DNA of 64,000 nucleotides, from contig CAZYTL010000003.1 in the NCBI GenBank assembly GCA_964650355.1, positions 1,750-65,749 on the forward strand, written 5' to 3'. This stretch comes from an uncultured Gammaproteobacteria bacterium (GTDB taxonomy: Bacteria > Patescibacteriota > Microgenomatia > CAYXHB01 > CAZYTL01). This document shows, piece by piece, positions 21,706 through 63,647 of the stretch. The position numbers and the translations under genes are program-made. Every line of letters begins with the position of its first letter. Positions within the stretch are counted from its first letter, which is position 1. Under the pieces are notes generated by a model. It saw only the letters and a list, made by a program, of their open reading frames with translations. It was not told where the DNA came from and ran no database searches.

Positions 21706-21883
21706 ACCCCTATCTTACCAGAACCTTCCCCGCTCTCAACCCCAAATATCAAGTCAATGAAAGACCCGATACGTAACACGTAACAAGAGACCAGAATAAA
21801 GGGGCAAAAACTAACTACAATTTAATTTCTACTAATTTCTACTCGCTATTTACCGATTACAGTTTACTATTTACTGATTACTC
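21706..21883. repeat. Spacer with tandem repeats (acgtaac x2, aatttctact x2, heptamer ttactgN array) directly after the ligase stop
   Basis: Same heptamer family as 464-764. On the gene strand it reads TAATCAG TAAATAG TAAACTG TAATCGG TAAATAG, giving stops in all frames. Confidence 0.5.
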
Positions 21884-23878
21884 TCACTTCTGCAACTCAA
21901 ACAACCGTACGACCTCCTCCAACGTACTTGCCTGCTCCGCCCCTTTGTCGTCCCGAAACTTCACCAGTCGCGGAAACCGCAACCCGTAATCAGAAGTATG
22001 CACCTTTGACTTCGTAATATTATCCGCCGCAATCTCTACCACCAGTTCTGGTCTCACCCACACATCCGGCTGCAAATTCTTATTCACCTCATATTCTTTG
22101 GGCTGCTTCTCGACTTCCAATTTCTTTAATCTGCCTTGCAGATCGCCAAACTGCTCATCCGTCAATCCCGTCCCGATCTTGGACACAGTTAAATAACCAC
22201 TCTTTAACTTCCCATCCTTTCTTTTAATTGTCCGATCCTCGTTACCGCGTACGCCTACGAGAAACGCTCCCAACCCAAACTTTGCTCTCTGCCCTCTGCC
22301 CCGGTAGTATCCCATGACCACACAATCCAATGTATCCGCCAACCCCGCCTTTGCTTCCTCCACCTCTTTCATCTTCACCCAATTCCACCCTTTCCTACCC
22401 GGAACATACGGACTGCCCCATCGCTTAATAATTACTCCCTCCAGCCCCGTTTTCAAATATTTCTTATGCAAATTACGACATTGATTAGCATCTTTCGTCA
22501 CCAATTGAGGAACTATTTCCAACACTTTACCTTTCTTTATCACCTTCTCTAGCAACTTCCTCCGGTCACTCAAAGGCAGGCCATGTACGTCCCCATCGCG
22601 CCCTTTAGCTTCTTTAACGTACAAAATATCAAAACACATGAACTTCAACGGCACTTTCCCTCTCTGCTCCTCAACTGCGTACTTCCTCTTCCTGGTCATC
22701 GTTACCTGAAAAGGTAGCCACTTGCCTGTTTTCGGGTCCACCCCAATGGCCTCGCAATCAAAAATCGCCTCCTGCATACCTCTATCTAATTGATCAGCAA
22801 TTGTATGCAATTCAGGAAACATATAACTATTCTCCTCCAAATTCCTGGTGAAACTCCTCACCTGCCAACTATCTTCCCGTTTGCCTGCTCTCCGCCTCCA
22901 ATGTATCTGCAGTCTCGTTCCGTCGTATTTCGGTTCCACTGCCACCTCTCCCATCTTTTCCAAGATCTCATCAAAACTCTTCAGCCTCTGGCACAACTCC
23001 GCCACCACCGGTGTACCTAAACGGACCTTTACCTTACCCAAAGCTCGGGTTATCTCACTTGACAGAGCTGATAAACTCTTTAAATCAGCTCTATCATCCT
23101 GAGCAGACCCCAAACCATGTGGGGTTTGAGGCTGTCGAAGGATCTTGGCTACTCTACTCCTTACTTGCTTCGCAATCAGTCCCACATCCGCCGCCACATT
23201 ATAGGCGTCCTCCAACTCCTCGTGCAGCGACTTATCCCCCGTCACCATCCAGCTCAACCCGTCCAAAATCGTCATCTCCCCGAACCCCAGCCGCAGCTTT
23301 CCCACCGGAATCCGAGCTATATACTTAGCACTCACTTTATCTACTGACCTCAACAAATCGGCTAACCCTTTTACCTTCCTTTCCTGACTCCCCCTCCCTT
23401 CATCCAGGGCAATCTCCATCAACCGCCTATAAGCCTCATTAACCGACATCTGTCCCTTCACATTTGACAAGGACGATAAACGATTAAAATCGTCCTTGTC
23501 ATCCTGAGCAGACCTCAAACCATGTGAGGTTTGAGGCTGTCGAAGGATCTCTACCTTTTTTTTCTTATTTTCAGCCAAGCTACCCGCTACTAACCCCAAG
23601 TCACCTTCCTTCTTATAGGCTCTCTTCACCTCATCCACTTCCACCTCATAAGCCTGTGCCAAAACTCTCACCATCATTTTTTCCGCCACATTAAACTCCG
23701 TCATTGAGTGTTTTGGCCCCAACTGCCCCAAACTCAAATACACTACTTTATCTATCTCGTTCTGCTTTGCAGAAACAAACAACTCAGCCAATAATCTCGT
23801 CATCTTCAACCGCCCGGACACCTTCTCTAACTTTTCCCAAAACTCAGCCAATTTTCTAAACTCCATCTTCCCTATCAT
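21884..23878 (-). CDS. lig: ATP-dependent DNA ligase
   Basis: KxDG adenylation motif EPKYDGTRLQ plus an OB domain. Carries two in-frame ~87-nt palindromic element insertions. Confidence 0.85.
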   Translation of the reverse strand: MIGKMEFRKLAEFWEKLEKVSGRLKMTRLLAELFVSAKQNEIDKVVYLSLGQLGPKHSMTEFNVAEKMMVRVLAQAYEVEVDEVKRAYKKEGDLGLVAGSLAENKKKKVEILRQPQTSHGLRSAQDDKDDFNRLSSLSNVKGQMSVNEAYRRLMEIALDEGRGSQERKVKGLADLLRSVDKVSAKYIARIPVGKLRLGFGEMTILDGLSWMVTGDKSLHEELEDAYNVAADVGLIAKQVRSRVAKILRQPQTPHGLGSAQDDRADLKSLSALSSEITRALGKVKVRLGTPVVAELCQRLKSFDEILEKMGEVAVEPKYDGTRLQIHWRRRAGKREDSWQVRSFTRNLEENSYMFPELHTIADQLDRGMQEAIFDCEAIGVDPKTGKWLPFQVTMTRKRKYAVEEQRGKVPLKFMCFDILYVKEAKGRDGDVHGLPLSDRRKLLEKVIKKGKVLEIVPQLVTKDANQCRNLHKKYLKTGLEGVIIKRWGSPYVPGRKGWNWVKMKEVEEAKAGLADTLDCVVMGYYRGRGQRAKFGLGAFLVGVRGNEDRTIKRKDGKLKSGYLTVSKIGTGLTDEQFGDLQGRLKKLEVEKQPKEYEVNKNLQPDVWVRPELVVEIAADNITKSKVHTSDYGLRFPRLVKFRDDKGAEQASTLEEVVRLFELQK
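23059..23145. repeat. Double-hairpin palindromic element copy A (in-frame in ligase, translated as ILRQPQTPHGLGSAQDDRADLKSLSALSS)
   Basis: Hairpin 1 gacagagctgat/atcagctctatc, hairpin 2 caaacc-atgtgg-ggtttg, conserved tcatcctgagc and gtcgaaggatct. Confidence 0.75.
23464..23550. repeat. Double-hairpin palindromic element copy B (in-frame in ligase, translated as ILRQPQTSHGLRSAQDDKDDFNRLSSLSN)
   Basis: Hairpin 1 gacaaggacgat/atcgtccttgtc, hairpin 2 cctcaaacc-atgtga-ggtttgagg. Confidence 0.8.
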
Positions 23879-23887
23879 AACACTACT

Positions 23888-24907
23888 CTACCCGCTCTTT
23901 CCTCCCCACCTATATCCTCTTCCCCTGCAACTCTCAATCAGTTCATCCGCAAAACCCTGACTCTGCAACTTCCTTCTCAATCTTTGTACCAACTTTCTCA
24001 TAGCCCACAAAGAAAATTTCTCTGGCTCATCAGGCCACAAATTATCCCCCATCGTCTCCCAAGCCACTACCCTTCCCCTATTCTCTACCAAGCATTTCAA
24101 CAACCAATACTCGCTTTTAGTCAAACCTTTGATCATTCGCTCATTCACCCAAATATCATCCTCCTTAATCTCTGCTTTCAACCCAGCTAATATCCCCAAC
24201 TTGCACATATAATCGTTTGCCTTATCAATCCACTGTTGGTCCACCGCTGTCTTTAGTCCTCTCGTCGTCCCCACAAAGCCAGGAAACAACTTCGACAATC
24301 CACCATATCTAAAAAGTAAATCTACAAATACCTCACTCTCTTCCCAGGAATAACCTTCCACTCTCACCGAATTCATCACCAACGCCGACAACACCCCATG
24401 CGCCAACCTATCTACGCTTATATCTTGTCTCCACCAAACTGCCAAATTCAAAACTCTCTCATTCATATCGCCCATAGAATAACTTACGCCTGATCCATAC
24501 TCGGTTGGCTTAATCAATAACTTTACCTCTTTATCAACCATCTCAGGAAATACGCTTCCCACATTCTTCCAAAAATCATCCTCAACCGTCTCCCATTTTT
24601 CCCTCAAAGTTTCTACATCCATCTGCCTTTCCTTCACCAAACCATTAATCCTTTTCGCAAGCTCATCTTCTCTCCAAATTAGCGACCCGTAATCTGTCTT
24701 TGCCACCTGACCCCAAAACCCTTTCTCTACTTCATCATAGTTCCAGTCAGGCAAATAAACCGCCTTCCAAACGTTCCCCACTACCTCTGGTAACACCAAA
24801 AACCCGTGCTTAAAATAAAACAAATTCGCCGTCTTTGCCGCAGTGTTCACGACCCGACAAGCCTCAGTTTCCCGAGAATATTCCCAATTAGTAGTTACTT
24901 TCATCAC
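23888..24907 (-). CDS. Protein with C-terminal OmpR/PhoB-type winged-helix DNA-binding domain (Trans_reg_C-like), N-terminal domain unknown
   Basis: C-terminal WAMRKLVQRLRRKL...CRGRGYRW matches the wHTH recognition-helix and wing pattern. Confidence 0.6.
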   Translation of the reverse strand: MMKVTTNWEYSRETEACRVVNTAAKTANLFYFKHGFLVLPEVVGNVWKAVYLPDWNYDEVEKGFWGQVAKTDYGSLIWREDELAKRINGLVKERQMDVETLREKWETVEDDFWKNVGSVFPEMVDKEVKLLIKPTEYGSGVSYSMGDMNERVLNLAVWWRQDISVDRLAHGVLSALVMNSVRVEGYSWEESEVFVDLLFRYGGLSKLFPGFVGTTRGLKTAVDQQWIDKANDYMCKLGILAGLKAEIKEDDIWVNERMIKGLTKSEYWLLKCLVENRGRVVAWETMGDNLWPDEPEKFSLWAMRKLVQRLRRKLQSQGFADELIESCRGRGYRWGGKSG

Positions 24908-24987
24908 TCATATTCTACCGCAACTTCGCAAATGTCCCCCAAAAGTCACGCACAGTTAGTTCTTCAAAAACTATAATCTATTAAACG

Positions 24988-25392
24988 ATGCCTATAAACC
25001 TAAAACAGCCAACCCCAGAAACAATTATGCCCCTTTCAGTAGCTAAAAGCATCGCCAGAAGAGCTGCGCAATATAGAATTCCACCCATTTCCCAGACTTT
25101 TATTGATCAAGACAACTGGGCATCTAGTGGAGGAATCTTTATTACCGGGGCAGAAATCCTTAACCGTCATGATCCCACTTGGCACGCGAGAAACGATATT
25201 CATCCATCCAAACTATACGAATACACTGAGTACCTCCACCCAGATGGTCCCTGGTTCCAAGCTTGGTGTACAAAAACCGTAAGAGCACCCCTGAAAAGTA
25301 CCATGGAAAGAGTGACAAGAGCATACCTTACAATAAAAACGCGGAGTGAAACCCTACCTCCGGAAATTATCTCTAGTCTTTTTCCAATGTAA
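24988..25392 (+). CDS. Hypothetical protein
   Basis: 134-aa ORF. No motif. Confidence 0.4.
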   Translation: MPINLKQPTPETIMPLSVAKSIARRAAQYRIPPISQTFIDQDNWASSGGIFITGAEILNRHDPTWHARNDIHPSKLYEYTEYLHPDGPWFQAWCTKTVRAPLKSTMERVTRAYLTIKTRSETLPPEIISSLFPM

Positions 25393-25428
25393 CATCTTCT
25401 TCACCCTCCAATCAGATATTCGATTCAT

Positions 25429-26994
25429 CTACCTGCACGTCCAATGATCCGGCACGTAAGCACACCACCAATATTTCAGTGTGGGTGTCGGAGTCGGCTC
25501 TGTCCCTGGCGTTGGCGTCGCTGTTGGAGAAACAGGTGTAGGAGTTAACGTCGGAGTCTGAGTCGGTGTTGGAGGAATCGGTATCGGCGTATCCGTAGGC
25601 GATACCGGGGTAGGCGTACTTGTTGGCTCTATCGGTGTCGGTGTCTGAGTCGGTGTACTCGTCGGTGGCACCGGAGTTAACGTTGGAGTCATTGTGACTG
25701 TCGGAGTTGCCGTCGGCGTCATCGTCGGTAAACCTCCACCACCTACGGCACCACAATCTACTGCCGCACATGCGTCAATCCTCCCAAAACTCCAATAACT
25801 TCCAGTTCCGGGGATCTTTTCCGCAGTTGATTCAATCTGCTGCCTTACCTGTTGATTACTCCACGCCAGATGCTCCCCCTTTACCAACCCTGCTAAGCCC
25901 GCCACCCAGGGACTAGCCATCGACGTCCCTGACAGACTTATATATCCTCCGTTATTATAAGTAGATAAAATCGCCACTCCCGGCGCCGCCACGTCTACCC
26001 AACTTCCGTAAGTCGACCAACTCGGCCTAGTATCATTTTCGTCTATCGCCCCCACCGCGATCACGTCAGAATAGTAAGCAGGATATACCGGATAACTTCT
26101 TCCATTATTCCCTGCCGCAGCCACCACCACTACTCCCCTGTTCCATGCATCCTCAATCGCTCTTTGCAACGTCCTTGACGGATAAGATCCGCCCAAACTC
26201 AAATTAATCACCTCTGCCCCGTTATCCACTGCCCAGGTGACTCCGTCCGCCACCCAAGAATAATATCCGCTTCCGTCATCATCCAACACCTTCACCGAAA
26301 ACAATCTCCCTTCATAGGCCATCCCCGCCACCCCCTTGCCATTATTAGTCATTGCTCCTGCAATTCCTGCCACATGCGTCCCGTGCCCGTTACCGTCATC
26401 GTCACCGTCGGTAGTAAAATTCGCCCTTTTAACCACCTTACTAGCCAAATCCTCATGACCCCTGTCAATTCCTGTATCCACAATCGCGATGTCTACCTGG
26501 CTTGAACCATGAGTCGCACTCCAGGCTCCGAAGGCCTTCACCTTATCTAATCCCCATTGACTACCAACTAAAGAATCATTAGGCACCTCTAACGCTTCTG
26601 CCACGTAATCCGGCTCCGCATACTCCACCCATAAACTCCTTCCCAATTCATCAGCCATCATTCTCGCCTCCGTACTTCCACTCCCCTTAATTTTCCCTCG
26701 AATCACCAAAGTATCCGCCATTTCCATCTTCTGCTCCTTCACCACCTCGATATTCCTTAACACCACCTTCTTGACCCATTCCGGCGTCCATCTTCTCCAC
26801 TTCACAATCACCCGTTCACTCTCACTCCCGGCTACCGCAACCCCCTGCCCTCCCACTTCAGCCTTCACTCCCCCATACCACCAGCCACTCATTGCCACTA
26901 ATAAACCGACTATCACTACTACCGCGAATCTGATCCTCGCCTTTCCCATATATCGATTATCCCTCACCATACTACCTTTTCCTTCCTCAGTCAA
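25429..26994 (-). CDS. Subtilisin-like serine protease (S8) with C-terminal Pro/Thr-rich linker and Cys-containing tail
   Basis: Catalytic triad contexts VDTGIDRGHEDL, HGTHVAGIAG and GTSMASPWVAGLAG. N-terminal signal/anchor. C-terminal (TPTx)n then KYWWCAYVPDHWTCR. Confidence 0.85.
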   Translation of the reverse strand: MTEEGKGSMVRDNRYMGKARIRFAVVVIVGLLVAMSGWWYGGVKAEVGGQGVAVAGSESERVIVKWRRWTPEWVKKVVLRNIEVVKEQKMEMADTLVIRGKIKGSGSTEARMMADELGRSLWVEYAEPDYVAEALEVPNDSLVGSQWGLDKVKAFGAWSATHGSSQVDIAIVDTGIDRGHEDLASKVVKRANFTTDGDDDGNGHGTHVAGIAGAMTNNGKGVAGMAYEGRLFSVKVLDDDGSGYYSWVADGVTWAVDNGAEVINLSLGGSYPSRTLQRAIEDAWNRGVVVVAAAGNNGRSYPVYPAYYSDVIAVGAIDENDTRPSWSTYGSWVDVAAPGVAILSTYNNGGYISLSGTSMASPWVAGLAGLVKGEHLAWSNQQVRQQIESTAEKIPGTGSYWSFGRIDACAAVDCGAVGGGGLPTMTPTATPTVTMTPTLTPVPPTSTPTQTPTPIEPTSTPTPVSPTDTPIPIPPTPTQTPTLTPTPVSPTATPTPGTEPTPTPTLKYWWCAYVPDHWTCR

Positions 26995-27030
26995 TTCATA
27001 GAATCAACAAATCACCATCCCAATTCTCCT

Positions 27031-27465
27031 TCACCCATACGGCAAGGGCAAATTAATCTTCATAATACTGATCCCGAAAAAATTCTCTATCACCCTGATC
27101 ACGGCATAAGACACCGCCACAATCGCTAACCCCGTGAATGCCGACATAATCCTTCCCCTGGCTGCCTCCACTTTTGACTTCTCCCCTCCTGAGATAATCC
27201 ACTGAAACCCGCCCATCACCACTGACCCAAAAAACAAAATTCCTGACACATAAAGCCCCAAACTCAACAACGCCCCCGCAAACTCCCCGATACTGGTAAT
27301 CGAAAACTGCTCCACCGTCTGCCTGGGGATCTCAATCGCCCCACTCGGATTATACTGGGCCATCACTACCCCACTAGCCGCCATTCGATTTAGCTTCTTC
27401 CAGCTTTTCCAAACGAATTTCAGCTTCTTCATATACAGTTCTCCCAGTAACTTTAACCGTTTCAT
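27031..27465 (-). CDS. Small two-TM membrane protein, candidate secretion-system (VirB2/TrbC-like) pilin
   Basis: Basic N-terminus, signal-like AASGVVMAQ, then two hydrophobic helices. Shares the EIP..TVEQFSITSIGEFAGAL module with the C-terminus of the 1235-aa protein. Confidence 0.45.
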   Translation of the reverse strand: MKRLKLLGELYMKKLKFVWKSWKKLNRMAASGVVMAQYNPSGAIEIPRQTVEQFSITSIGEFAGALLSLGLYVSGILFFGSVVMGGFQWIISGGEKSKVEAARGRIMSAFTGLAIVAVSYAVIRVIENFFGISIMKINLPLPYG

Positions 27466-27502
27466 ATACTACTATATAATTTAATCCACAAAGAACAGTA
27501 CA

Positions 27503-27590
27503 TACCGATGGCCCCGATGACTATCGGTATATCCCCCTCCTTATCACTTATCGTATCGATTCTAAAAATTTCATTCGGATCATTCGGATG
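27503..27590. promoter_or_regulatory. Upstream region of the pilin-like gene: palindrome ataccgat...atcggtat (27503-27530) and tttcattcggatcattcggat motif (27569-27589) shared with the upstream region of the 1235-aa gene
   Basis: Read directly. The reverse complement contains catcggggccatcggtat, similar to catcggggcatcggtat upstream of pilB. Confidence 0.4.
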
Positions 27591-27805
27591 AATTAGTATA
27601 TTAGGATCGCCCCCAAGCCGACTTAGGGTCTATACAAACAACTCGAATTAACACCCCATGCTACCAATATAAAATGTTTAATTAACCTATCTCATTACAC
27701 CAGTCTCGACTGAGAACTCCATGAGTCGCGACTGAAACTTTCTTCAAATTAACCATCAAAAAAGGTAAAATATTCCTATCCTCAATCTCCTCATCAACCT
27801 AGCCT

Positions 27806-28051
27806 ATGACCCCAGCCCCCACTCTGCTCCACCGTCGCCAACAAATCCTCGCTAAAATTAATCGACTAAAAAAACAAATCGCCGAAGAAAGAGAAAATGA
27901 GGAAGTCTACCCCGGCCACGAAAGCACTTGGCGAGTTGATACTGAAAACCAACTCCAGGTGCTCACCACCCACCTCAACCAAATCAATCAGGTTCTCCAG
28001 CGCTCGAAACCTCAAGCATCCCAACGCACATCCCAACACAAAAACAAATAA
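27806..28051 (+). CDS. Small hypothetical protein
   Basis: 81-aa ORF in an otherwise gene-free gap. Coiled-coil-like. Confidence 0.3.
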   Translation: MTPAPTLLHRRQQILAKINRLKKQIAEERENEEVYPGHESTWRVDTENQLQVLTTHLNQINQVLQRSKPQASQRTSQHKNK

Positions 28052-28136
28052 TCACTTCAGTTAGTCCACTTCCAAGCCAGCCCCCTCATAAACTCAATCT
28101 TGTCTCTCCATCCCTCCTTATGCCATAATCTAATCA

Positions 28137-28880
28137 ATGCCCCTACTCGTCTTTCTCTTAATCATTATCTTCCTCCTCCTCACCGGTGTGCGCATCGTTG
28201 ATCAATACGAACGCGGCGTCATCCTCACCTTGGGTAAATACTCCGAAACCAAACAACCCGGCCTCAACTGGATCATCCCCATCGTCCAGCGCATGATCAA
28301 AGTCGACCTCCGCATCACTACCGTTGACATTCCCCAACAGGAAGTCATCACCAAAGATAATGTCCCCGTGGGCATCAACGCCGTCGTCTATTTCCAGGTA
28401 GAAAAAGCCGAGGACGCCATCCTTAAAATTCAAAACTATTCCTACGCCGTTTCCCAATACGCCCAGGCCGCCCTCCGCGACGTCATCGGCGGCGTAGAAC
28501 TCGACACCCTACTCACCGAACGTCACGAACTCGCCACCCAAATTAAAAACCTCGTTGATGAAGAAACCAACGCCTGGGGTATTAACGTTACCGCCATCAA
28601 AATCCAGGACATCGAACTTCCGGCCGACATGAAGCGTGCTATGGCCAAACAGGCTGAAGCCGAGCGCGGTCGTCGCGCCGTCATCATCACCGCCGAAGGC
28701 GAATTCACCGCTTCTGAAAAACTCAAACTCGCCGCCCAAAACCTGGCCGACGGCGGTATCTCCATCCGCACCCTCCAAACCATCGAATCCACTACCGCCA
28801 ACCCCGCCAACACCGTCGTCTTCGCCCTGCCTACCGAAATCCTCAAAGGCTTCAAAAACCTCATCAAAGGCCAACAGTAA
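28137..28880 (+). CDS. SPFH/band-7 (stomatin/prohibitin-like) protein
   Basis: N-terminal TM, then VRIVDQYERGVILTLGKY...KDNVPVGINAVVYFQV...AEAERGRRAVIITAEGE, typical SPFH. Confidence 0.85.
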   Translation: MPLLVFLLIIIFLLLTGVRIVDQYERGVILTLGKYSETKQPGLNWIIPIVQRMIKVDLRITTVDIPQQEVITKDNVPVGINAVVYFQVEKAEDAILKIQNYSYAVSQYAQAALRDVIGGVELDTLLTERHELATQIKNLVDEETNAWGINVTAIKIQDIELPADMKRAMAKQAEAERGRRAVIITAEGEFTASEKLKLAAQNLADGGISIRTLQTIESTTANPANTVVFALPTEILKGFKNLIKGQQ

Positions 28881-28894
28881 TAAAAACCAATTAC

Positions 28895-29410
28895 ATGACC
28901 CCCCTTAGCCCCGTCTTAATTCTTATCGGGCTACTCTCCTTAATTTCACCTCCCCTTGTATACGCCAACATGGTTGGTCTTGCCCCTCCCCATCAATTAC
29001 TTGGCTTTCTTCTGGAATTTACCTTTATTACCGGTCCACTTAATGGACTTATCGAATTTACTGTTTTGTGGCTACTTCTAAGAAAAAACCTTACCGGACA
29101 GTGGCTATTCAAAAACGCCATCATCATCAATCTCCTCACTTTCCTTCCCACTCAAAAACTTTTCACTTTCACCAGATACTCCTTATTTAATTTTGTAACT
29201 TACCGACCTTACGACTCCCTTGTTACCATCTCAATTCTATTTTTCGTTGAAATCTTCCCCGTCACCATGGAATATCTTTTCTACAAATGGCGTCTCTCCA
29301 AACCATCTAACAACAAATCTCTAGCCCATACCTCAAATAAAAAATTACTCTTATCCGTTATCTGTGCTAATCTTGTTACTACCTCCTTGGGAGTTCTGCT
29401 TTTCATCTAA
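28895..29410 (+). CDS. Hypothetical membrane protein
   Basis: 171 aa, multi-TM, downstream of the SPFH gene. Confidence 0.45.
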   Translation: MTPLSPVLILIGLLSLISPPLVYANMVGLAPPHQLLGFLLEFTFITGPLNGLIEFTVLWLLLRKNLTGQWLFKNAIIINLLTFLPTQKLFTFTRYSLFNFVTYRPYDSLVTISILFFVEIFPVTMEYLFYKWRLSKPSNNKSLAHTSNKKLLLSVICANLVTTSLGVLLFI

Positions 29411-29449
29411 CCCAATACTACATCAATTTAAGCGTTTCACCATTCAATC

Positions 29450-29872
29450 ATGCCGCCATCTAAACACTCTTTCCTTGTCCCTCAGCACACCTCACCCGAA
29501 GAAATCACGCGCCAGGTAAAACAACAAGCTAGAATTTCTTACCTCATCTTCATCTTGCTCTTCTTCTTTATCACTTTGATTGTAGAATTTTTTGTTAAAC
29601 CTCAATTCACGACGCTTTTATCAGACGATCAACAAGCCTTTATCCTTAAATACAGTTTATATCCTCCAATAATTATACTTCTTTTCTGCTCAGTTATCAG
29701 CTATTACTATACCCGAAACCCCAAATACACCAGCCAGCCAGTCAAAGATAACCTTATAAGAGTCAGTTCACAAAAAACCAAATTACTTCTACCAATTATT
29801 ATCTTAATTCTATTACTTTCAACTGCATATCAACTTTTCACCATCATCACATCCGCCTACATTATTAACTAA
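29450..29872 (+). CDS. Hypothetical membrane protein
   Basis: 140 aa, three to four TM segments. Confidence 0.45.
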   Translation: MPPSKHSFLVPQHTSPEEITRQVKQQARISYLIFILLFFFITLIVEFFVKPQFTTLLSDDQQAFILKYSLYPPIIILLFCSVISYYYTRNPKYTSQPVKDNLIRVSSQKTKLLLPIIILILLLSTAYQLFTIITSAYIIN

Positions 29873-29900
29873 ATCTCACCTCCATGCATAATTCACCTTC

Positions 29901-30419
29901 TTAATTTGTCCCGCTCAATCGTGGCATTTTCTTAAACACCTTCGGGCTAAACCCCAAAGCTTTAGCTGCCTCCTCTGCTGCCTGCAAATTTGCCGCCCCA
30001 TCCTCCACTATTACATCTATCCGTGCCAACTGTTTAAAAATCTGCGTCCAAACCGCCCTCTCCTTTTTGCTCCCATAATCAGACATATCAAATATTTTCT
30101 TTGCTACATTTCCTAAACCTAACCTTTCTAATATCAACCTTGAAGTCGCCACCAAAGCTGTTGAAACCACCACCAGCTCATAATCTTCCAAACTAGCCCT
30201 CAAATTCTCCACAGCAAACTTATTTGAATAAATCTTTAACCTCCCAGACCGGACCGCCTCCAGTTCACCTTCTAACTGCGACTTTATATCTGCATCTGCC
30301 TTTCCCAACTTAAACATTGCCTTCTCAAACACCTTCTCGTGCTTATTAGGATCAAATCCAGGATCATAACTATACAACACCCCGCCCATATCCGACACCA
30401 ACACCTTCATCAAGCCCAT
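29901..30419 (-). CDS. HAD-like fold hydrolase (motif I degenerate)
   Basis: LVSDMGGVL (DxG instead of DxD), VVVST, SKKE and EDGAANL resemble HAD motifs II-IV. Confidence 0.45.
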   Translation of the reverse strand: MGLMKVLVSDMGGVLYSYDPGFDPNKHEKVFEKAMFKLGKADADIKSQLEGELEAVRSGRLKIYSNKFAVENLRASLEDYELVVVSTALVATSRLILERLGLGNVAKKIFDMSDYGSKKERAVWTQIFKQLARIDVIVEDGAANLQAAEEAAKALGFSPKVFKKMPRLSGTN

Positions 30420-30426
30420 TATACAC

Positions 30427-30753
30427 TCAAAAACTGTGTCCTAATTCACTTAATTTCAGCCACACTCGCACGTCTCCCAACTCAGGAAACTCCTTCATCA
30501 AAAAATCCCGTAACTCATTAGCGATTTCATCCTCTCTTTCAACTCGCTCCTTAAATGCATGCACAGACACCTCCAACTCTACCTCGCCAATCATTTGTCC
30601 ACTTACTTTAATAAACCTGATACTAATTTCCTTTTCCGTCAATCTAATCTCTCCGCAACTCAGACGTTCTGCTGCAAAAGGGCGTAACTTAAGAACAATC
30701 TCCTTTTCCTTTAATCGGTCTTTCGCATACACATTAATCGTCGGCATATCCAA
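30427..30753 (-). CDS. Hypothetical protein, possibly tautomerase-superfamily-like (Pro1 if translation starts at the second Met)
   Basis: MDMPTINVY...; weak. Confidence 0.3.
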   Translation of the reverse strand: MDMPTINVYAKDRLKEKEIVLKLRPFAAERLSCGEIRLTEKEISIRFIKVSGQMIGEVELEVSVHAFKERVEREDEIANELRDFLMKEFPELGDVRVWLKLSELGHSF

Positions 30754-30861
30754 ATCTTACCACAAACCGATCACCATCCTGCTCAGCAAAATCAACAGAA
30801 CATGACCCTTATTATCAGTTTACATCTGTCCTTTTATCTGATTTTATCCGTCGAGTCTACT

Positions 30862-31659
30862 TCACACCTGCATCAAAAACTCCTCCGCCAACTTCCCCGC
30901 CTCTCCGTTCGCCCGGTAAAAATTCTTCCACACCACCACAATATCCGCTCCGTTAAACACCGCCGATTGAATCTCCCGCGGCTTATCCCCCCCTGCCACC
31001 GACACCATCACATTAAACGCCCCCTTAATCTTATTAATCATCTGAATCGGCAACGGCTTGTCAGAAAACTCCTCCTCATCCACCCCCCGGTGCAAAATCA
31101 CCACCTGCGGCAACTGCTTCAACTTTCTCAGCACCTTGTAAGGCTGCTCCACATTCATCATATCCACCATTGCATCCACCCCGTGCTCCTCGCACTCAGC
31201 CATAAACGCATCCAAAGATTCCACCGGCGCCATCCCCAAAGCCACCGCCCCACTCGCCCCCGCCTCTGCCGCAATCTGCACCTCAGTCGACCCCCGATCC
31301 ATCATCTTCAAATCCGCCACCACATAAGCTTGTGCCATTTCCTGACTCAGCCCTCCCTCATTCCTCATCCCCGGACTCTTCATCCCCGACTTTAACAACA
31401 TCCCCAATATCCCAGTGAACTGAACACTTTCTTCCTTATCATAAACCAGATTCTGTCCCATCAAATGTGTCCGATACCAATACTTAATCCTCCTAATCCC
31501 TTCCGCTCCATAGCGCTTAATCAATGGCGTCCCCGCCTCTACAATAATCCGCTCGCTTCTAGGCAACTGACTGATAATCCGTCGTGCATCGCTCAACGTC
31601 CCGTTCAGCGCCACCTGCAAATACCTTTTCTTCGGATCCAATAATGAATTCCTTTTCAC
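30862..31659 (-). CDS. KGPDC/OMP-decarboxylase-superfamily protein (3-hexulose-6-phosphate synthase-like)
   Basis: LQVALNGTLSDARRII...IIVEAGTPLIKRYG matches the HPS/KGPDC N-terminal signature, but with N replacing the catalytic D. About 70 aa inserted. Confidence 0.65.
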   Translation of the reverse strand: MKRNSLLDPKKRYLQVALNGTLSDARRIISQLPRSERIIVEAGTPLIKRYGAEGIRRIKYWYRTHLMGQNLVYDKEESVQFTGILGMLLKSGMKSPGMRNEGGLSQEMAQAYVVADLKMMDRGSTEVQIAAEAGASGAVALGMAPVESLDAFMAECEEHGVDAMVDMMNVEQPYKVLRKLKQLPQVVILHRGVDEEEFSDKPLPIQMINKIKGAFNVMVSVAGGDKPREIQSAVFNGADIVVVWKNFYRANGEAGKLAEEFLMQV

Positions 31660-31739
31660 TAATTACATTCTACGATCTCCATGGATTCTTCACAATCAGC
31701 ACCCACCGAAAGTCGACCCCACCCACATCCGCACCCTTT

Positions 31740-32819
31740 TTAACTCACCAACACATACCTCGCCGCTTTCGTCCTCCCTTTCTTCCTCACCAACTTCTTC
31801 CTCATCAGATCAGTCAAATCACGCAACAACGTATCCTCGCTCACTTTAGGTATCAATTCCTTGGCATCGCGCATATACAACTCCTCATGCTCCTTCATAT
31901 ACTCCACCAGCTTAATCTGTCTGTCTGACAACGCAATCTGCTTCCCCACCTTATTCTTCAACCTCTCATCCATCGACAATCTCCTCACCTTTTCCTTCAC
32001 CCTGGTTAACTCCACCGCCAGAGCTTGAGTAAAATACTCTAGCCAACTTGTTAAATCCCTTTCTTCCAGCTCTTCAGTTTGGTTCGACACCGCTTGCAAA
32101 GCACTATAATAAGCCGCTACATCCTGGTCAAAATATTCTTCCAAACTGAACAGCCTCCGGATATCATACCCCTCCGCCCACAACACCAGTGTCGCCATCG
32201 CCCGTGCCACCCGACCGTTACCCTCCACAAACGGATGAATCGCCACCAGAAAATAATGAGTAATTGCCGCCCTCAAAACCGGATGAACCTTCAGACTCTG
32301 CCTATCATTCAACCACAATAATAATCCTTCCACCAAATACGGCACCTCCACCGCCGGCGGCGCCTTGTAACTCGCCTCCCCGCTTTGCACACTCCGCACG
32401 ATCACCTGCGCTTCTCTGAACTTTCCTACCCCATGATCTACCACCCTCTCCACCGTCAACTGATGCATCCTCAATAACTGTTCTTCCGTGTACTCAAACG
32501 GCATCTCCTTGTCCTGTCGCAAAGCTTCCAACCGGTCAATATACTTCAGCACCTCCCGATAATTTAACACCTCCTGCACATCCCTCTCCCGCGCCACCAC
32601 CTCTTTGCCTTCTAGCACCTCTCTCGCCTGATCCAGACTTAGGGCATTCCCCTCAATCGCTGTCCCGTAATGCACCGTCTTCACCACTGCCTCCTCCACA
32701 AACTGCTTTTCCCACGCCGGCACAATCGGCGCATTCACAATCACCTCACGGCACGCCTCAATAATTCCGATATTACCCAAAATGTCATTGGTAATTTGAA
32801 ATTTAGGTAAATACATCAA
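31740..32819 (-). CDS. Fic-family protein (AMPylase-like) with C-terminal wHTH
   Basis: Fic motif HPFVEGNGRVARA. N-terminal GTAIEGN resembles the inhibitory (S/T)xxxE(G/N) helix with S/T replaced by G. Confidence 0.85.
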   Translation of the reverse strand: MMYLPKFQITNDILGNIGIIEACREVIVNAPIVPAWEKQFVEEAVVKTVHYGTAIEGNALSLDQAREVLEGKEVVARERDVQEVLNYREVLKYIDRLEALRQDKEMPFEYTEEQLLRMHQLTVERVVDHGVGKFREAQVIVRSVQSGEASYKAPPAVEVPYLVEGLLLWLNDRQSLKVHPVLRAAITHYFLVAIHPFVEGNGRVARAMATLVLWAEGYDIRRLFSLEEYFDQDVAAYYSALQAVSNQTEELEERDLTSWLEYFTQALAVELTRVKEKVRRLSMDERLKNKVGKQIALSDRQIKLVEYMKEHEELYMRDAKELIPKVSEDTLLRDLTDLMRKKLVRKKGRTKAARYVLVS

Positions 32820-32820
32820 A

Positions 32821-33486
32821 CTAATATCGCAGCGAAGATAACCACAAAATCAAAAACCCCACCCCAGCAATTATCAATATTCCTACTGGTATCATAAGTA
32901 AAGCCTGCCACCAACTCAACCTGCGATCATATTTGGCTACCTTTTCACTAAAAGAATCCATAAACCATTGTGCTTCCCTTAAATTAGGCATAAAATCTAC
33001 TCCTCGACTCTTACAAAACCCTTCTACCACTTCTAATATTGAAGCACAATTCTTAACCAAAATCCCTCTTTCCATTAACTGGGTCCTCACAAATGACGAA
33101 CTCACAATTAAATATTTCGTATCATCACTTACCTCCCGATACAAAACTGAAGTAATTTGCGGCCAGTTTGGTGACCAAAATGAACTCTTTTCATTAAAAA
33201 ACGCTAAAGTAAAATTATTCTCCCCATGGCTATCTACCACTCCCGATCCCAATTTATCATATACCGGTTTAGGTATTAAAAATCTCTCCTCTCGGGGTCG
33301 CTCTTCTTCAGGTAACAACCTATGCCAACTTTTCAACAGCTCATATAAATCTCTACCCTGCACCTCGACCGGCAACTTAATAATTACAGATCGATAATTT
33401 GCATTTCTCTCCGCCCAATCCTCCATCCCCGTTAGTGCTCGGGCAGCAAATTCCTCCACTACAAAATTTAATAAAGGATTAGGCAT
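32821..33486 (-). CDS. Hypothetical protein with C-terminal TM anchor, translationally coupled upstream of fic
   Basis: Its stop codon is 1 nt from the fic start codon. 221 aa. Confidence 0.45.
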   Translation of the reverse strand: MPNPLLNFVVEEFAARALTGMEDWAERNANYRSVIIKLPVEVQGRDLYELLKSWHRLLPEEERPREERFLIPKPVYDKLGSGVVDSHGENNFTLAFFNEKSSFWSPNWPQITSVLYREVSDDTKYLIVSSSFVRTQLMERGILVKNCASILEVVEGFCKSRGVDFMPNLREAQWFMDSFSEKVAKYDRRLSWWQALLMIPVGILIIAGVGFLILWLSSLRY

Positions 33487-33594
33487 ATCCCCTCCACTCT
33501 ATCATAAATTTCCGCACAATTCACGCACTCATTACGTTTAGCAATCAGCAATTTCGGCCTCTGGCCGAAATTTCCACTCCAAAATCTTCACTCC

Positions 33595-34761
33595 TTATTT
33601 TTGATTTTTGCTATTTGATATTTCTAATAGGTATCCTCTTCCTCTTACTGTCCTCAAGTCATACCCGCTTCCCAGTAACTTCTTCCTCAAACGTGAAATC
33701 GCCTGATCCACGGCCTCTTCCGACACTCCTTCAGGATTGTCCCCTGGCCAACCCGCTTCCACCAACTCTTCCCTCTCGCATACTCCCCCTGCCCTATCCT
33801 TTAAACACTTCCACAACCGATACTCAATCTGTGTCAACCTGTTCTCAACCTTAGCCTCTCCGATCTGAGCCTCGCTCGTCTCCTTTCCCTCGCCCTCTGT
33901 CCACGTCTCAGCTCTATCTCTGACAAACCTCTCCACCGCCTCTGACCCAATCACACATTTTTGTTCTCCATTTGACAAAGCTGATAAACTCCTCAGATCA
34001 GCTTTGTCATCCTGAGCGCTCCTAAAACGATGTGACGTTTTAGGGCGTCGAAGGATCTCCTTTACTACTCCCCACCCCCACAACCCCTTATTCATCACCT
34101 CAACACCATCCCTGACGAACTCCACCAACTGCTTTCGTTGTTCTTCGTTCAACCCCCGCCAAATCATCTTCAACATTCCTCTTAGCCTGGCAGAACTTTC
34201 CACCTCCTCCCTGCCTTCCACCAACCATGACTTAACCAATCCCGGAATTCCTCCTGAAAACAAATAAATCTCTTCCCTTTCCTCCTTATTCACCTTCATT
34301 CCTAACCTCCTGGCCACGTTATCAATCACCGCATCTGTTTCTTCTCTCCTACATACCGGAAAATATAACTTTGATTCTGTCACCAACTCATAAAAATTTC
34401 CCATCCTCTCCGCTTCCCGGCTCAAATCACACCTCGTACTCGTCACCACCAAATAAGTCACATGATACTTCCGTTCATCCCTGATCGCCCGCAAATGATT
34501 AAACACCTTCGGTTCAGCCATCTTTAATAACGATTCAAAATGATCTATCACCACCGTCGTTGGTTTCTTCCTGTCAACCTCGCTCATTTCCAGTAATTTA
34601 AACGGCACCAGATTTGCATCCCGCTTCACCAACTTCCTCCCCTTGATCTCTAATTCTCTAATCATCCGGGTCATCCCCCACCCCGGCAAACCGCATAAAC
34701 GCACTGATAACCCGGCATCTAATTTCTCCACCACTGACTTCATTACTTGGCTTCTAGACAT
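33595..34761 (-). CDS. Degenerate P-loop NTPase-like N-domain + C-terminal OmpR-type wHTH (paralog family with 23888 and 43461)
   Basis: LCGLPGWGMTRM (Walker-A-like), VVIDHFE (Walker-B-like) and C-terminal ISRLRKKL...VRGRGYLL. Carries palindromic element copy C in-frame. Confidence 0.6.
   Translation of the reverse strand: MSRSQVMKSVVEKLDAGLSVRLCGLPGWGMTRMIRELEIKGRKLVKRDANLVPFKLLEMSEVDRKKPTTVVIDHFESLLKMAEPKVFNHLRAIRDERKYHVTYLVVTSTRCDLSREAERMGNFYELVTESKLYFPVCRREETDAVIDNVARRLGMKVNKEEREEIYLFSGGIPGLVKSWLVEGREEVESSARLRGMLKMIWRGLNEEQRKQLVEFVRDGVEVMNKGLWGWGVVKEILRRPKTSHRFRSAQDDKADLRSLSALSNGEQKCVIGSEAVERFVRDRAETWTEGEGKETSEAQIGEAKVENRLTQIEYRLWKCLKDRAGGVCEREELVEAGWPGDNPEGVSEEAVDQAISRLRKKLLGSGYDLRTVRGRGYLLEISNSKNQK
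33972..34058. repeat. Double-hairpin palindromic element copy C (in-frame in the 33595..34761 gene, translated as ILRRPKTSHRFRSAQDDKADLRSLSALSN)
   Basis: Hairpin 1 gacaaagctgat/atcagctttgtc, hairpin 2 cctaaaacg-atgtga-cgttttagg. Stem changes relative to copies A and B are compensatory. Confidence 0.8.
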
Positions 34762-43460: not shown

Positions 43461-44501
43461 TTAGTGATTAACTTTCAACCGATACCCCTTTCCCTTTACA
43501 TTCTCCAGCTCAAACCTCCCTTTCAGCTTCCTCCGCAACCGCGACATCTGCTTATACAACGCCCATAAAGAAAACTTCTCCTCGCTCATCTCCAACATAT
43601 CCGCCAACTTATCCACCGACAATACCTTTCCTTGATTCTCTTCCAACCAGGTAAAAATCCTCTCTTCGGTTCTAGTTAAATTTCCATACATCTGTTCCGC
43701 TATCTTACTCCTGTATCTTTGAACAAAATAATCTCTCAACAACCCAGATCGAATCCGATTATCCTCATCAACCAACTTCAAATCCTGCAACTGTTTAGTA
43801 CTTAATTGTACTATCAACTTTGTCAAATAATTCAACTGAAACAAAATCCCTGAATTTGATTGAAAACCCTCCAAATCGTCCAGCTTCATCTGTCTCTCTG
43901 CCATATTCTTAGGAATCCGCTTCAGTAATCTCCCAATTCCACCGGACAATTCATAAATCCGCTCATAATCCTTCTCTGCTATCGGCCATCCATAATAATC
44001 ATTCGTCACCCTCAACATCGTAAATGCTGCATGTTTATCAAACGGGTCAATCCTAAAACCCGCATTCACGAAAATCCTTGAATGGGCAAAATACCATTCA
44101 GGATGAATAATTCCGGTATGATCAGTGGAAATCAAAAACACTAATTTCTCAGGGTGTGGTTGTCGCAACTCACTTAAGGCCTCTGCGAGATCACTCTTAT
44201 TAGGCACATTTTCAAACCATCTAATTACCACTAAAATTCGTTCGTTTTCAGATTCCAAGGCTAATTTGATCCTCTCAACAATATCCGTGTCTTTACCTCC
44301 ATTGAAAAACAACACCTGATCAAAGACTTCGTCTTCCTCAAACAAGCGCAACAAAAAATTAATTGCTGTATTCAAACCGCATCCCCCTACGGCTGAAATT
44401 GACACATTCTCTCCCTTCAACAACTTCTCACTCACCTTAATATACAGATTATTAAAATAATCTCTTGGCAAACACTGATAGTAAGTTTTATTCATGTCCA
44501 A
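43461..44501 (-). CDS. Degenerate NTPase-like N-domain + C-terminal OmpR-type wHTH (third paralog)
   Basis: SISAVGGCGLNTAINFLL (P-loop-like) and C-terminal LWALYKQMSRLRRKL...VKGKGYRL. Confidence 0.6.
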   Translation of the reverse strand: MDMNKTYYQCLPRDYFNNLYIKVSEKLLKGENVSISAVGGCGLNTAINFLLRLFEEDEVFDQVLFFNGGKDTDIVERIKLALESENERILVVIRWFENVPNKSDLAEALSELRQPHPEKLVFLISTDHTGIIHPEWYFAHSRIFVNAGFRIDPFDKHAAFTMLRVTNDYYGWPIAEKDYERIYELSGGIGRLLKRIPKNMAERQMKLDDLEGFQSNSGILFQLNYLTKLIVQLSTKQLQDLKLVDEDNRIRSGLLRDYFVQRYRSKIAEQMYGNLTRTEERIFTWLEENQGKVLSVDKLADMLEMSEEKFSLWALYKQMSRLRRKLKGRFELENVKGKGYRLKVNH

Positions 44502-61200: not shown

Positions 61201-61470
61201 TGCGGGGTAGTGTACGGCTGCACGGAGGGCTAGTAGTATGGGCCCCTTAGGGAGTAATCTCTATTGAATAACCTGGCTATATCGGTAGACAGCCCGATGG
61301 ACATCGGGCCAATATCCGAGGGAAGTCGACCTTATTATCTGGTTTGACCCCGTAGAGACTACACGCCGGGCCCCCGATAAACATCGGGGTGATGATATAG
61401 TCCGACACTCTGAGTAATCAGAGATTACAGATCAGCATAATCCTCCAGACCGGGTTCAACCCCCGGCCCC
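61201..61470 (+). ncRNA. ssrA: Structured RNA candidate with tRNA-like 3' domain (tmRNA-like): 5' tgcgggg pairs with 3' ccccgca; T-arm ccggg-TTCAACC-cccgg
   Basis: Acceptor/T-arm architecture parallels the E. coli tmRNA 3' end (gacgcgggttcaactcccgcc-acceptor). A gaataacctggct segment resembles taataacctgctt at the tag stop. Followed by an intrinsic terminator. No convincing tag ORF found. Confidence 0.35.
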
Positions 61471-61484
61471 GCAACATAAAAAGA

Positions 61485-61506
61485 CCGCCCATATGGCGGT
61501 TTTTTA
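61485..61506 (+). terminator. Rho-independent terminator-like hairpin accgcc-cata-ggcggt + T6 (alternatively an IS200 subterminal hairpin)
   Basis: Perfect 6-bp GC-rich stem followed by tttttt, flanked by an A-run. Confidence 0.5.
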
Positions 61507-63570: not shown

Positions 63571-63647
63571 GCCAGGGTAGCTCAGTTGGTTAGAGCATCG
63601 GATTCATAAACCGAAGGTCGTGGGTTCAAATCCCACCCCTGGTACCA
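63571..63647 (+). tRNA. tRNA-Met (anticodon CAT), elongator/Ile2-lysidine type, CCA encoded
   Basis: Cloverleaf: acceptor gccaggg/ccctggt, D-arm gctc-agttggtta-gagc, anticodon loop ttCATaa, T-arm gtggg-ttcaaat-cccac, then acca. The anticodon stem lacks the initiator 3xGC signature. Confidence 0.85.

Follow-up and report, generated by a model that had tools for sequence, protein, structure and literature searches.

Why should two unrelated bacterial genes carry, within their reading frames, the same DNA element of about 87 nt with two hairpins in each copy? We examined this question in a 64,000-nt stretch of contig CAZYTL010000003.1 (positions 1,750 to 65,749 of the forward strand; hereafter the window), in which two copies of the element lie in a DNA ligase gene and one in a regulator gene. 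A sequence-only reading of the window had reported these three copies and likened them to the palindromic elements of Rickettsia. Our analysis indicates that the copies probably represent a composite palindromic repeat, restricted to one lineage and based on a TGTC-tagged core resembling that of repetitive extragenic palindromes (REPs), and that they are probably selfish DNA tolerated as translated surface loops.

The three copies form a well-defined repeat family within the window. The signature TCATCCTGAGC-N-GTCGAAGGATC, where N is a hairpin, occurs three times in the window and not once in 100 dinucleotide shuffles, and a covariance model run over the full 64 kb recovered just these three copies at 98–108 bits, with the next, unrelated match at about 13–15 bits. 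The positions originally reported are thereby confirmed (Table 1); a candidate fourth copy near 44033-44106 proved to be a chance match. Because both host genes lie on the minus strand, the sequence first described is the antisense strand, and the reported peptide is recovered by reading the minus strand: every window copy comprises 29 codons in an identical relative frame and encodes ILR..P..SH...SAQDD..D....LS.LS.

Folding each copy returned both hairpins on either strand, with z-scores of -3.6 to -6.8. A third helix, absent from the sequence-only reading, was also recognized: on the TTGACA strand, hairpin 2 is closed by ATCCT/AGGAT, which pair across a tandem G.A/A.G. Read along that strand, the element consists of the tag TGTC, the 5-bp stem ATCCT/AGGAT, the tandem G.A/A.G and a 12–13-bp hairpin, with the core formula TGTC-ATCCTGAGC...CGAAGGAT, and an accessory upstream hairpin pairs with the tag itself. 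The stems had been called exactly complementary, which is mostly the case; copy B has one C.A in stem 1 and another in stem 2 (on the + strand; G.U on the mRNA strand). The same copy reads TATC at the tag position in the 3' arm of hairpin 1, where the other copies read TGTC, and its hairpin-1 loop, AAACTCTTTAA, fits the family pattern AAAC...TA.A. In base composition the elements differ sharply from their surroundings, with a GC skew of 0.0–0.08 versus -0.45 to -0.58 in the flanks.

Table 1. Host genes and the three copies of the two-hairpin element in the window
Feature	Position	Strand	Description
DNA ligase host gene	21884-23878	minus	ATP-dependent, 664 aa; DNA_ligase_A_N/M/C (N-terminal, adenylation and OB domains)
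Copy B	23059..23145	+ (TTGACA -> GGATCT)	98.6 bits; ligase residues ~246-274 from minus strand, ILRQPQTPHGLGSAQDDRADLKSLSALS
Copy B hairpin 1	23061..23095	+	12-bp stem GACAGAGCTGAT/ATCAGCTCTATC, one C.A; loop AAACTCTTTAA
Copy B core	23096..23143	+	P1 ATCCT/AGGAT, tandem G.A/A.G, GC..G(T)C, 9-bp apical hairpin, loop ATGTGG
Copy A	23464..23550	+	108 bits; ligase residues ~111-140, ILRQPQTSHGLRSAQDDKDDFNRLSSLS
Copy A hairpin 1	23466..23500	+	GACAAGGACGAT/ATCGTCCTTGTC
Copy A core	23501..23548	+	P1 + G.A/A.G + apical hairpin CCTCAAACC/GGTTTGAGG
Regulator host gene	33595-34761	minus	STAND-like NTPase + OmpR-type winged helix, 388 aa
Regulator copy	33972..34058	+	106.7 bits; translated ILRRPKTSHRFRSAQDDKADLRSLSALS
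Regulator copy hairpin 1	33974..34008	+	GACAAAGCTGAT/ATCAGCTTTGTC
Regulator copy core	34009..34056	+	apical hairpin CCTAAAACG/CGTTTTAGG

Insertions relative to homologous proteins

Comparison with homologues identified the copies as insertions. Among 14 aligned ligases, the insert encoded by copy A (insert A) was present only in the window protein, and that encoded by copy B (insert B) fell in a linker whose length varies across all of the aligned proteins. The regulator, in which Pfam models gave a clear match to Trans_reg_C and a match to nSTAND1 just under the curated cut-off (26.7 versus 27.1 bits), carries an insert of 33 residues that is missing from 5 of 5 homologues found (38–48% identity). 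Homologues of both host proteins had either no inserts or other inserts at the same variable linkers. These homologues, together with recurrence of the element at unrelated sites in unrelated genes, support the earlier suggestion of mobile palindromic DNA tolerating, or giving rise to, insertions in proteins.

The relatives of the ligase are Microgenomates/Gottesmanbacteria-type proteins of the candidate phyla radiation (CPR), typically 570–590 aa long compared with 664 in the window, and judged by these relatives the host is Microgenomates-like. Both ligase inserts sit at domain linkers. In the AlphaFold model of the ligase, with a mean predicted local distance difference test score (pLDDT) of 81, the two longest segments below 50 coincide with the inserts (residues 112–140 and 252–264, inside them); values below 50 also occur at short loops outside the inserts (507–514 and 551–559). 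The model thus suggests that the inserts are probably tolerated as loops, likely disordered, at fold-compatible variable linkers.

One insertion site is shared with other ligases. The element occupies the insert-B site in the ligase orthologues of contigs L241 and L243. The orthologous ligase P0002, 61% identical by BLASTP and 66% over aligned codons, has the element at the insert-B site in a conserved ligase–MscS gene order, and ligase P0003 has an element near that site with a 30-nt nested hairpin, plus a second element elsewhere in the gene.

Copies inside long open reading frames (ORFs) obey a strict rule. All of them, comprising 9 of 12 loci plus the copies in DnaX and TPR-protein genes, share the ILR..AQDD..LS.LS reading frame and run antisense to the TTGACA orientation; some copies lie outside any long ORF. 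Each element strand contains one stop-free frame, and the use of a single frame is what would be expected if only read-through insertions survive. The rule of orientation, which extends over about a dozen apparently independent events in one direction only, is not accounted for by stop codons and may reflect a tolerated peptide or strand-specific insertion.

The frame rule also argues against excision from RNA. An intervening sequence, intron- or intein-like, could in principle be cut from RNA or protein to leave mature proteins without the insert, and such a device would suit an intron-rich group such as the CPR, a window with a group I intron in its tRNA-Cys gene and an element whose length is a multiple of three. 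However, the host frame runs through every intragenic copy without a stop codon, which would be needless if the element were excised, no intron or intein signatures were found, and the element also occurs outside long ORFs. We therefore consider excision barely credible.

The wider family and covariation of its stems

Beyond the window, about ten further distinct copies were found in related Microgenomates-type metagenomic contigs, with hosts that include genes for DnaX and a TPR protein. Covariance model R1, applied to related contigs, scored CPR-type loci at 50–107 bits and 100 core-only loci of other phyla at no more than 38 bits, a gap indicating that the composite element is limited to this lineage. 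A metagenome scan for the junction between hairpin 1 and the core, using a pattern that itself specified TTGACA, gave 17 loci, about 8 of them true copies. At the protein level, an exhaustive profile search of 1.84 billion representatives produced six matches. Three of these are short or N-terminal ORFs and one, a HEAT-repeat protein, is a false positive; the other two are DnaX, a subunit of the clamp loader, and a membrane protein of the TPR type. The DnaX and TPR-protein copies keep their hairpins at the DNA level. A word-index protein search with the 42-aa peptide profile gave no match.

The architecture varies in a modular fashion among these copies. One metagenomic copy lacks hairpin 2. 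The TPR membrane protein combines one full copy with a copy of hairpin 1 only; this lone hairpin 1 (L262:2388-2480; TTGACAAGTGCGATACGCTCTTTAAATCGCGCTTGTCA) is in frame, which makes hairpin 1 a seemingly separable module. Additions also occur: the hairpin-2 loop of one copy (L255:3755-3871) houses a miniature core, TCTC-GAGCTTGTCGA-GAGA, and at L243:1206-1328 and 1833-1955 one ligase-gene copy has a 30-nt extra hairpin right after CCTG. The nested additions measure 30 or 24 nt, both multiples of three.

The recurrent TTGACA could be taken for the -35 box of an antisense promoter or small-RNA gene, whose transcript would form the hairpins. The exact hexamer heads the window copies as well as the related copies retrieved with it, the latter with the caveat that the metagenome pattern prescribed it. 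Yet no conserved -10 box lies at 16–18 nt, a scan gave weak 9/12 matches at chance level, and TTGACA is fully accounted for as the 5' arm that pairs with TGTCA. A promoter is, on this evidence, extremely unlikely.

The stems covary well beyond the three original copies. Across ten aligned copies, Watson-Crick pairing holds in 95.3% of cells, versus 32–48% when the partner column is slid, and 15 of 30 pairs vary on both sides (57 cells) with no one-sided change. The census comprises 286 Watson-Crick pairs, 0 G-T and 4 C-A; on the tag strand, two G-T are contributed by two copies outside the alignment. Little or no variation is seen in the loops (TAAAC, ATGTG) and the junctions. The sequence-only reading had taken pairing preserved under drift as the signature of selection on secondary structure. 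The covariation itself is real, but the pattern would be no different for a palindrome on which DNA propagation depends, and palindromic DNA explains the scarcity of wobbles as readily as an RNA helix does, or more so, with no clear preference for a strand.

Comparison across orthologous ligases revealed conservation at the nucleotide level beyond protein constraint. Between the window and L241, amino-acid identity at the shared site is the same within the element as in the rest of the gene (0.66 in each), whereas third-codon-position identity is 0.86 within and 0.46 outside, and identical residues use the same codon in 15 of 19 cases within the element versus 170 of 368 outside it. Against L243, third-position identity is 0.79 versus 0.44. 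Such conservation above the gene background shows that these are not ordinary protein-motif codons, a possibility that the sequence-only reading had itself raised and that the 15 covarying pairs also contradict. This leaves two readings: upkeep of the palindromes, whether by selection, by conversion or by templated repair, or an age of the copies far below that of the genes. That junction and position are shared at the orthologous ligase site favours upkeep without proving it.

These data bear directly on whether the element is a conserved peptide module, in which about 29 residues (ILR..SAQDDK.DLKSLS.LS) are selected for a protein role, such as a docking loop, and the palindromy is incidental. 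The single orientation and frame in every case, the invariance of ILR, AQDD and LS.LS, and the enrichment of hosts for DNA replication functions (ligase, DnaX) are what a functional peptide would predict. Against it, synonymous sites are conserved well over the gene background, substitutions come in complementary pairs that include synonymous ones, and the predicted pLDDT is below 50. Only the 6 matches already described were found among 1.84 billion representatives, sister ligases read the same core in other frames and from the opposite strand (YPERSRR, HPELVSGS), and the frame rule follows from the presence of one stop-free frame per strand. We judge a peptide role very unlikely.

Kinship with the CGTC- and TGTC-tagged repeats

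The core of the element reaches far beyond the CPR. Among the matches listed, with one genome per species, the core TCATCCTGAGC...GTCGAAGGAT occurred in Acidobacteriota, Verrucomicrobiota, Bacteroidota, Firmicutes, Actinobacteria, Proteobacteria and several CPR groups, as well as in viral contigs. The interior of these relatives is a variable hairpin or merely 4–5 nt, the latter being commonest (57 of 146 cores), and it folds better on the tag strand, here antisense to the host genes, at 74 versus 21 of 109 loci. In a scan that made no assumption about the tag, 81 of the 146 cores were preceded by TGTC (70) or CGTC (11), where about 1 would be expected by chance. Among composite copies, TGTC stands directly before ATCCT in 12 of 13, copy B (TATC) being the exception. 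Neither at gathering thresholds nor with permissive filters and a limit of E=10 did the element match a family in Rfam 15, and core copies in 18 other loci were likewise unmatched.

These features place the core with a published superfamily. Di Nocera, De Gregorio & Rocco (2013; BMC Genomics 14:522; PMC3733652) divided REPs into GTAG- and CGTC-tagged superfamilies. In the latter, found across several phyla, the tag is often TGTC or CCTC and unpaired, the stem of 8–9 bp opens with A-T, T-A, the loop has 4–5 nt, a short unpaired tail has the consensus CCA, and most units form head-to-head dimers; no dedicated transposase is known (PMC3733652). Members include Neisseria dRS3 and Rickettsia RPE-4 and RPE-6 (RPE-4/6 = CGTC-4/1), and in-frame CGTC REPs encode 20–30 residues and are frequent in genes of DNA synthesis and repair, including DNA ligase, with RHSELVSGS as the example peptide of CGTC-2 (PMC3733652). 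The window core shares the TGTC tag and the A-T, T-A opening of the stem; after the five pairs of ATCCT/AGGAT come a conserved G.A/A.G, then G-C and C-G, making nine positions of which two are non-Watson-Crick, the tandem G.A/A.G being a departure from the published stem. Further differences are that the window copies are single and all in one orientation, with no dimers, and that their host belongs to the CPR, a group outside the study by Di Nocera et al. On this comparison the window element fits a composite variant of the CGTC/TGTC-tagged REP superfamily and appears evidently derived from it. The earlier statement that no equivalent had been described therefore needs narrowing: the CGTC-tagged superfamily is published (PMC3733652), and our literature search for in-frame palindromic repeats of the REP or Rickettsia type in CPR, Patescibacteria or Microgenomates found no prior description. 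Searching the literature by the nucleotide strings of the element or by repeat-derived peptides returned irrelevant primer matches or nothing.

A direct link to the published repeats is found in a sister ligase, P0007, whose gene contains a textbook CGTC-2-like repeat (CGTC+ATCCTGAA+CTTGT+TTCAGGAT+CCC) in frame and in sense orientation, encoding RHPELVSGS, as well as a simple core that encodes YPERSRR. The clade of this ligase (P0007, at L263:1001-2953, with P0004 and P0005) is a hot spot for repeat-derived inserts, with at least 4 sites and both orientations; among the inserts are perfect hairpins bearing the CGTC tag (RHPELVSGS), cores of the simple type (V/FYPERSRR) and ..SSSAQNDN... A distant ligase relative of 936 aa, P0115, contains intein/LAGLIDADG domains too.

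The comparison with Rickettsia is supported. According to Ogata et al. (2000, 2002), whose work PMC10969869 and PMC3733652 cite, Rickettsia palindromic elements (RPEs) are palindromic repeats in frame in unrelated housekeeping genes, translated as extra peptide segments at fold-compatible positions. The window element is likewise in frame in unrelated genes, missing from homologues and placed at surface or linker positions. In contrast, RPEs of the RPE-1 type are about 150 bp and unrelated in sequence, and the host here is not Rickettsia but a free or episymbiotic CPR bacterium. The comparison is one of descriptions, its sole sequence-family link being the identity in the literature of RPE-4/6 with CGTC-4/1.

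Observations on core copies elsewhere add to this picture. In Acidobacteria, inverted core doublets about 100 bp apart have a REPIN-like layout (L006:3992-4200, L013:3661-3803 and L036:1377-1575), and the core is often followed by CCCTAC or CTGCGGTTG. In L068, a pair of inverted core copies separated by 1.4 kb flanks a gene first suspected to be of the RAYT type, which proved to be histidyl-tRNA synthetase. Long stop-free stretches over core copies in GC-rich Acidobacteria were unusable as evidence of an intragenic location. Likenesses to hammerhead, kink-turn, T-loop, SRP, tmRNA and group II domain 5 motifs were discarded because their conserved positions do not fit.

Folding on the RNA level deserves separate consideration. 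The element could be a structured cis element in the mRNA or in an antisense transcript, such as a site for RNase III or other processing, a stabilizer of mRNA or an inter-domain translational pause. Compensatory change in situ with invariant loops and junctions at the orthologous ligase site would be expected of such an element, as would the raised third-position identity and the placement of both ligase inserts at domain linkers; read on the mRNA strand, the alignment's 4 C.A cells would become G.U, and Di Nocera et al. make the case for an RNA mode of action in many REPs (PMC3733652). Nevertheless, the copies occupy non-homologous positions in unrelated genes, some of them outside long ORFs, and no Rfam family matched. 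Wobbles are nearly nil, and the two G.T of the further copies are on the opposite (tag) strand. In the wider core family the better-folding strand is antisense to host genes, and the tandem G.A forms only on that antisense strand. Scans for promoters and terminators found no signal, a result that is uninformative. Altogether, we regard an RNA element as unlikely, though it is the chief competitor of the preferred account.

Mobility, maintenance and the surrounding window

We return to the composite repeat as the probable explanation. In this scenario the element would spread as DNA into many sites, and copies in coding sequence would survive only in a variable surface linker, if their length is divisible by three and the gene reads them in the one frame that has no stops. 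The survivors would be translated as a hydrophilic, probably disordered loop of about 29 residues, and the palindromes would stay near-perfect if the machinery of propagation or maintenance uses the folded single strand. We infer that the element is or was mobile and that the peptide is actually made; a single-strand, hairpin-recognizing enzyme is a natural guess for the mechanism of mobility.

Other mobile repeats offer partial parallels. With REP/REPIN-RAYT systems the element shares short hairpins, a conserved terminal tetranucleotide, covarying stems and a presumed action as a folded single strand, and inverted core doublets are found in Acidobacteria; it differs in having no conserved GTAG at either end and no doublets in the window. 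Elements of the MITE class (miniature inverted-repeat transposable elements, such as Correia/NEMIS, ERIC and BOX) are similarly small, non-autonomous repeats that can sit in genes and make in-frame fusions.

Several observations weigh against a mobile TGTC-tagged repeat. We found no RAYT or other transposase family in the 18 neighbouring ORFs scanned. Hallmarks of MITEs are missing: the ends TTGACA.../...GGATCT are not inverted repeats, and the flanks of 13 copies show no common duplication. No empty site was found to set beside a filled one at nucleotide resolution as proof of mobility, of the exact ends and of any target duplication, and translation of the insert is deduced solely from frame conservation in the sequence. 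The kinship with CGTC REPs is also imperfect. The window tag is paired, TGTC(A) with TGACA at the base of hairpin 1, in pairs that are invariant or nearly so in 10 sequences; the loop is replaced by 38 nt between GAGC and CGA that form a further hairpin; and the tails are CTT, CTC and CTC, compared with CTC, CCC or CTG in the wider core family. Finally, both hairpins at the orthologous ligase site seem to have been kept by compensatory change despite protein identity of only ~61–66%, a persistence that looks like ongoing selection or gene conversion rather than a passive relic.

This last point raises the alternative that the element is an actively maintained nucleic-acid structure inside essential genes. 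Such a reading draws on the Watson-Crick compensation at the orthologous ligase site, on the invariance of loops, junctions and the tandem G.A, and on the escape of the elements from the G/C strand bias; we hold it to be rather unlikely. If it were true, it would imply machinery that recognizes or repairs a TGTC-tagged G.A hairpin whose core is common to many phyla, and thus a conserved module for recognition of single-strand DNA or RNA, with a partner that is not known, embedded in coding sequence.

Taken as a composite tagged repeat, the element would be of a known kind, the novelty being a structural variant in a new host group, the CPR. The best-known carriers of palindromic repeats in frame are Rickettsia and a few Proteobacteria and Verrucomicrobia rich in REPs, and the present copies add tiny CPR genomes and core replication genes (DNA ligase, DnaX). 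These copies tie the phenomenon to a tagged hairpin core that is common to many phyla and whose mobilizing enzyme is not known. Part of the unusual length variation of CPR proteins would be explained, and annotators should be warned that segments of the types 'ILR..AQDD', 'YPERSRR' and 'HPELVSGS' are repeat-derived. The orthologous ligase insertion, compensated in situ against a strong strand bias, offers a clean case for deciding whether such palindromes are tolerated or actively maintained.

That strand bias is a property of the whole window. Over positions 1-64000 the GC skew is -0.44 (8154 G versus 21146 C on the + strand), ranging from -0.36 to -0.50 per 8-kb block; there is no AT skew, and long ORFs are mostly on the minus strand. 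The Microgenomates genome Ch65 and its relatives have a strand disparity of 29.8% C versus 15.0% G (PMC7143001), which the window resembles and exceeds.

The window has further features of note. A group I intron (Rfam RF00028, 56.4 bits) at ~61225-61428 on the + strand, within window positions 61201-61500, splits the anticodon loop of tRNA-Cys(GCA); ARAGORN predicts this tRNA only once the intron is removed in silico, and tRNA-Met follows at 63571-63647. In a subtilase-family gene (25429-26994), an imperfect 34-nt tandem or dispersed repeat at 25496-25736, with 6 copies of 62–76% identity, is probably a repetitive low-complexity protein segment. Two intergenic stretches upstream of minus-strand genes, 579-754 and 21829-21882, have TTACCGATTACTG-type short repeats in common (repeat families D3 and D5); the second of these stretches is directly downstream of the ligase stop codon.

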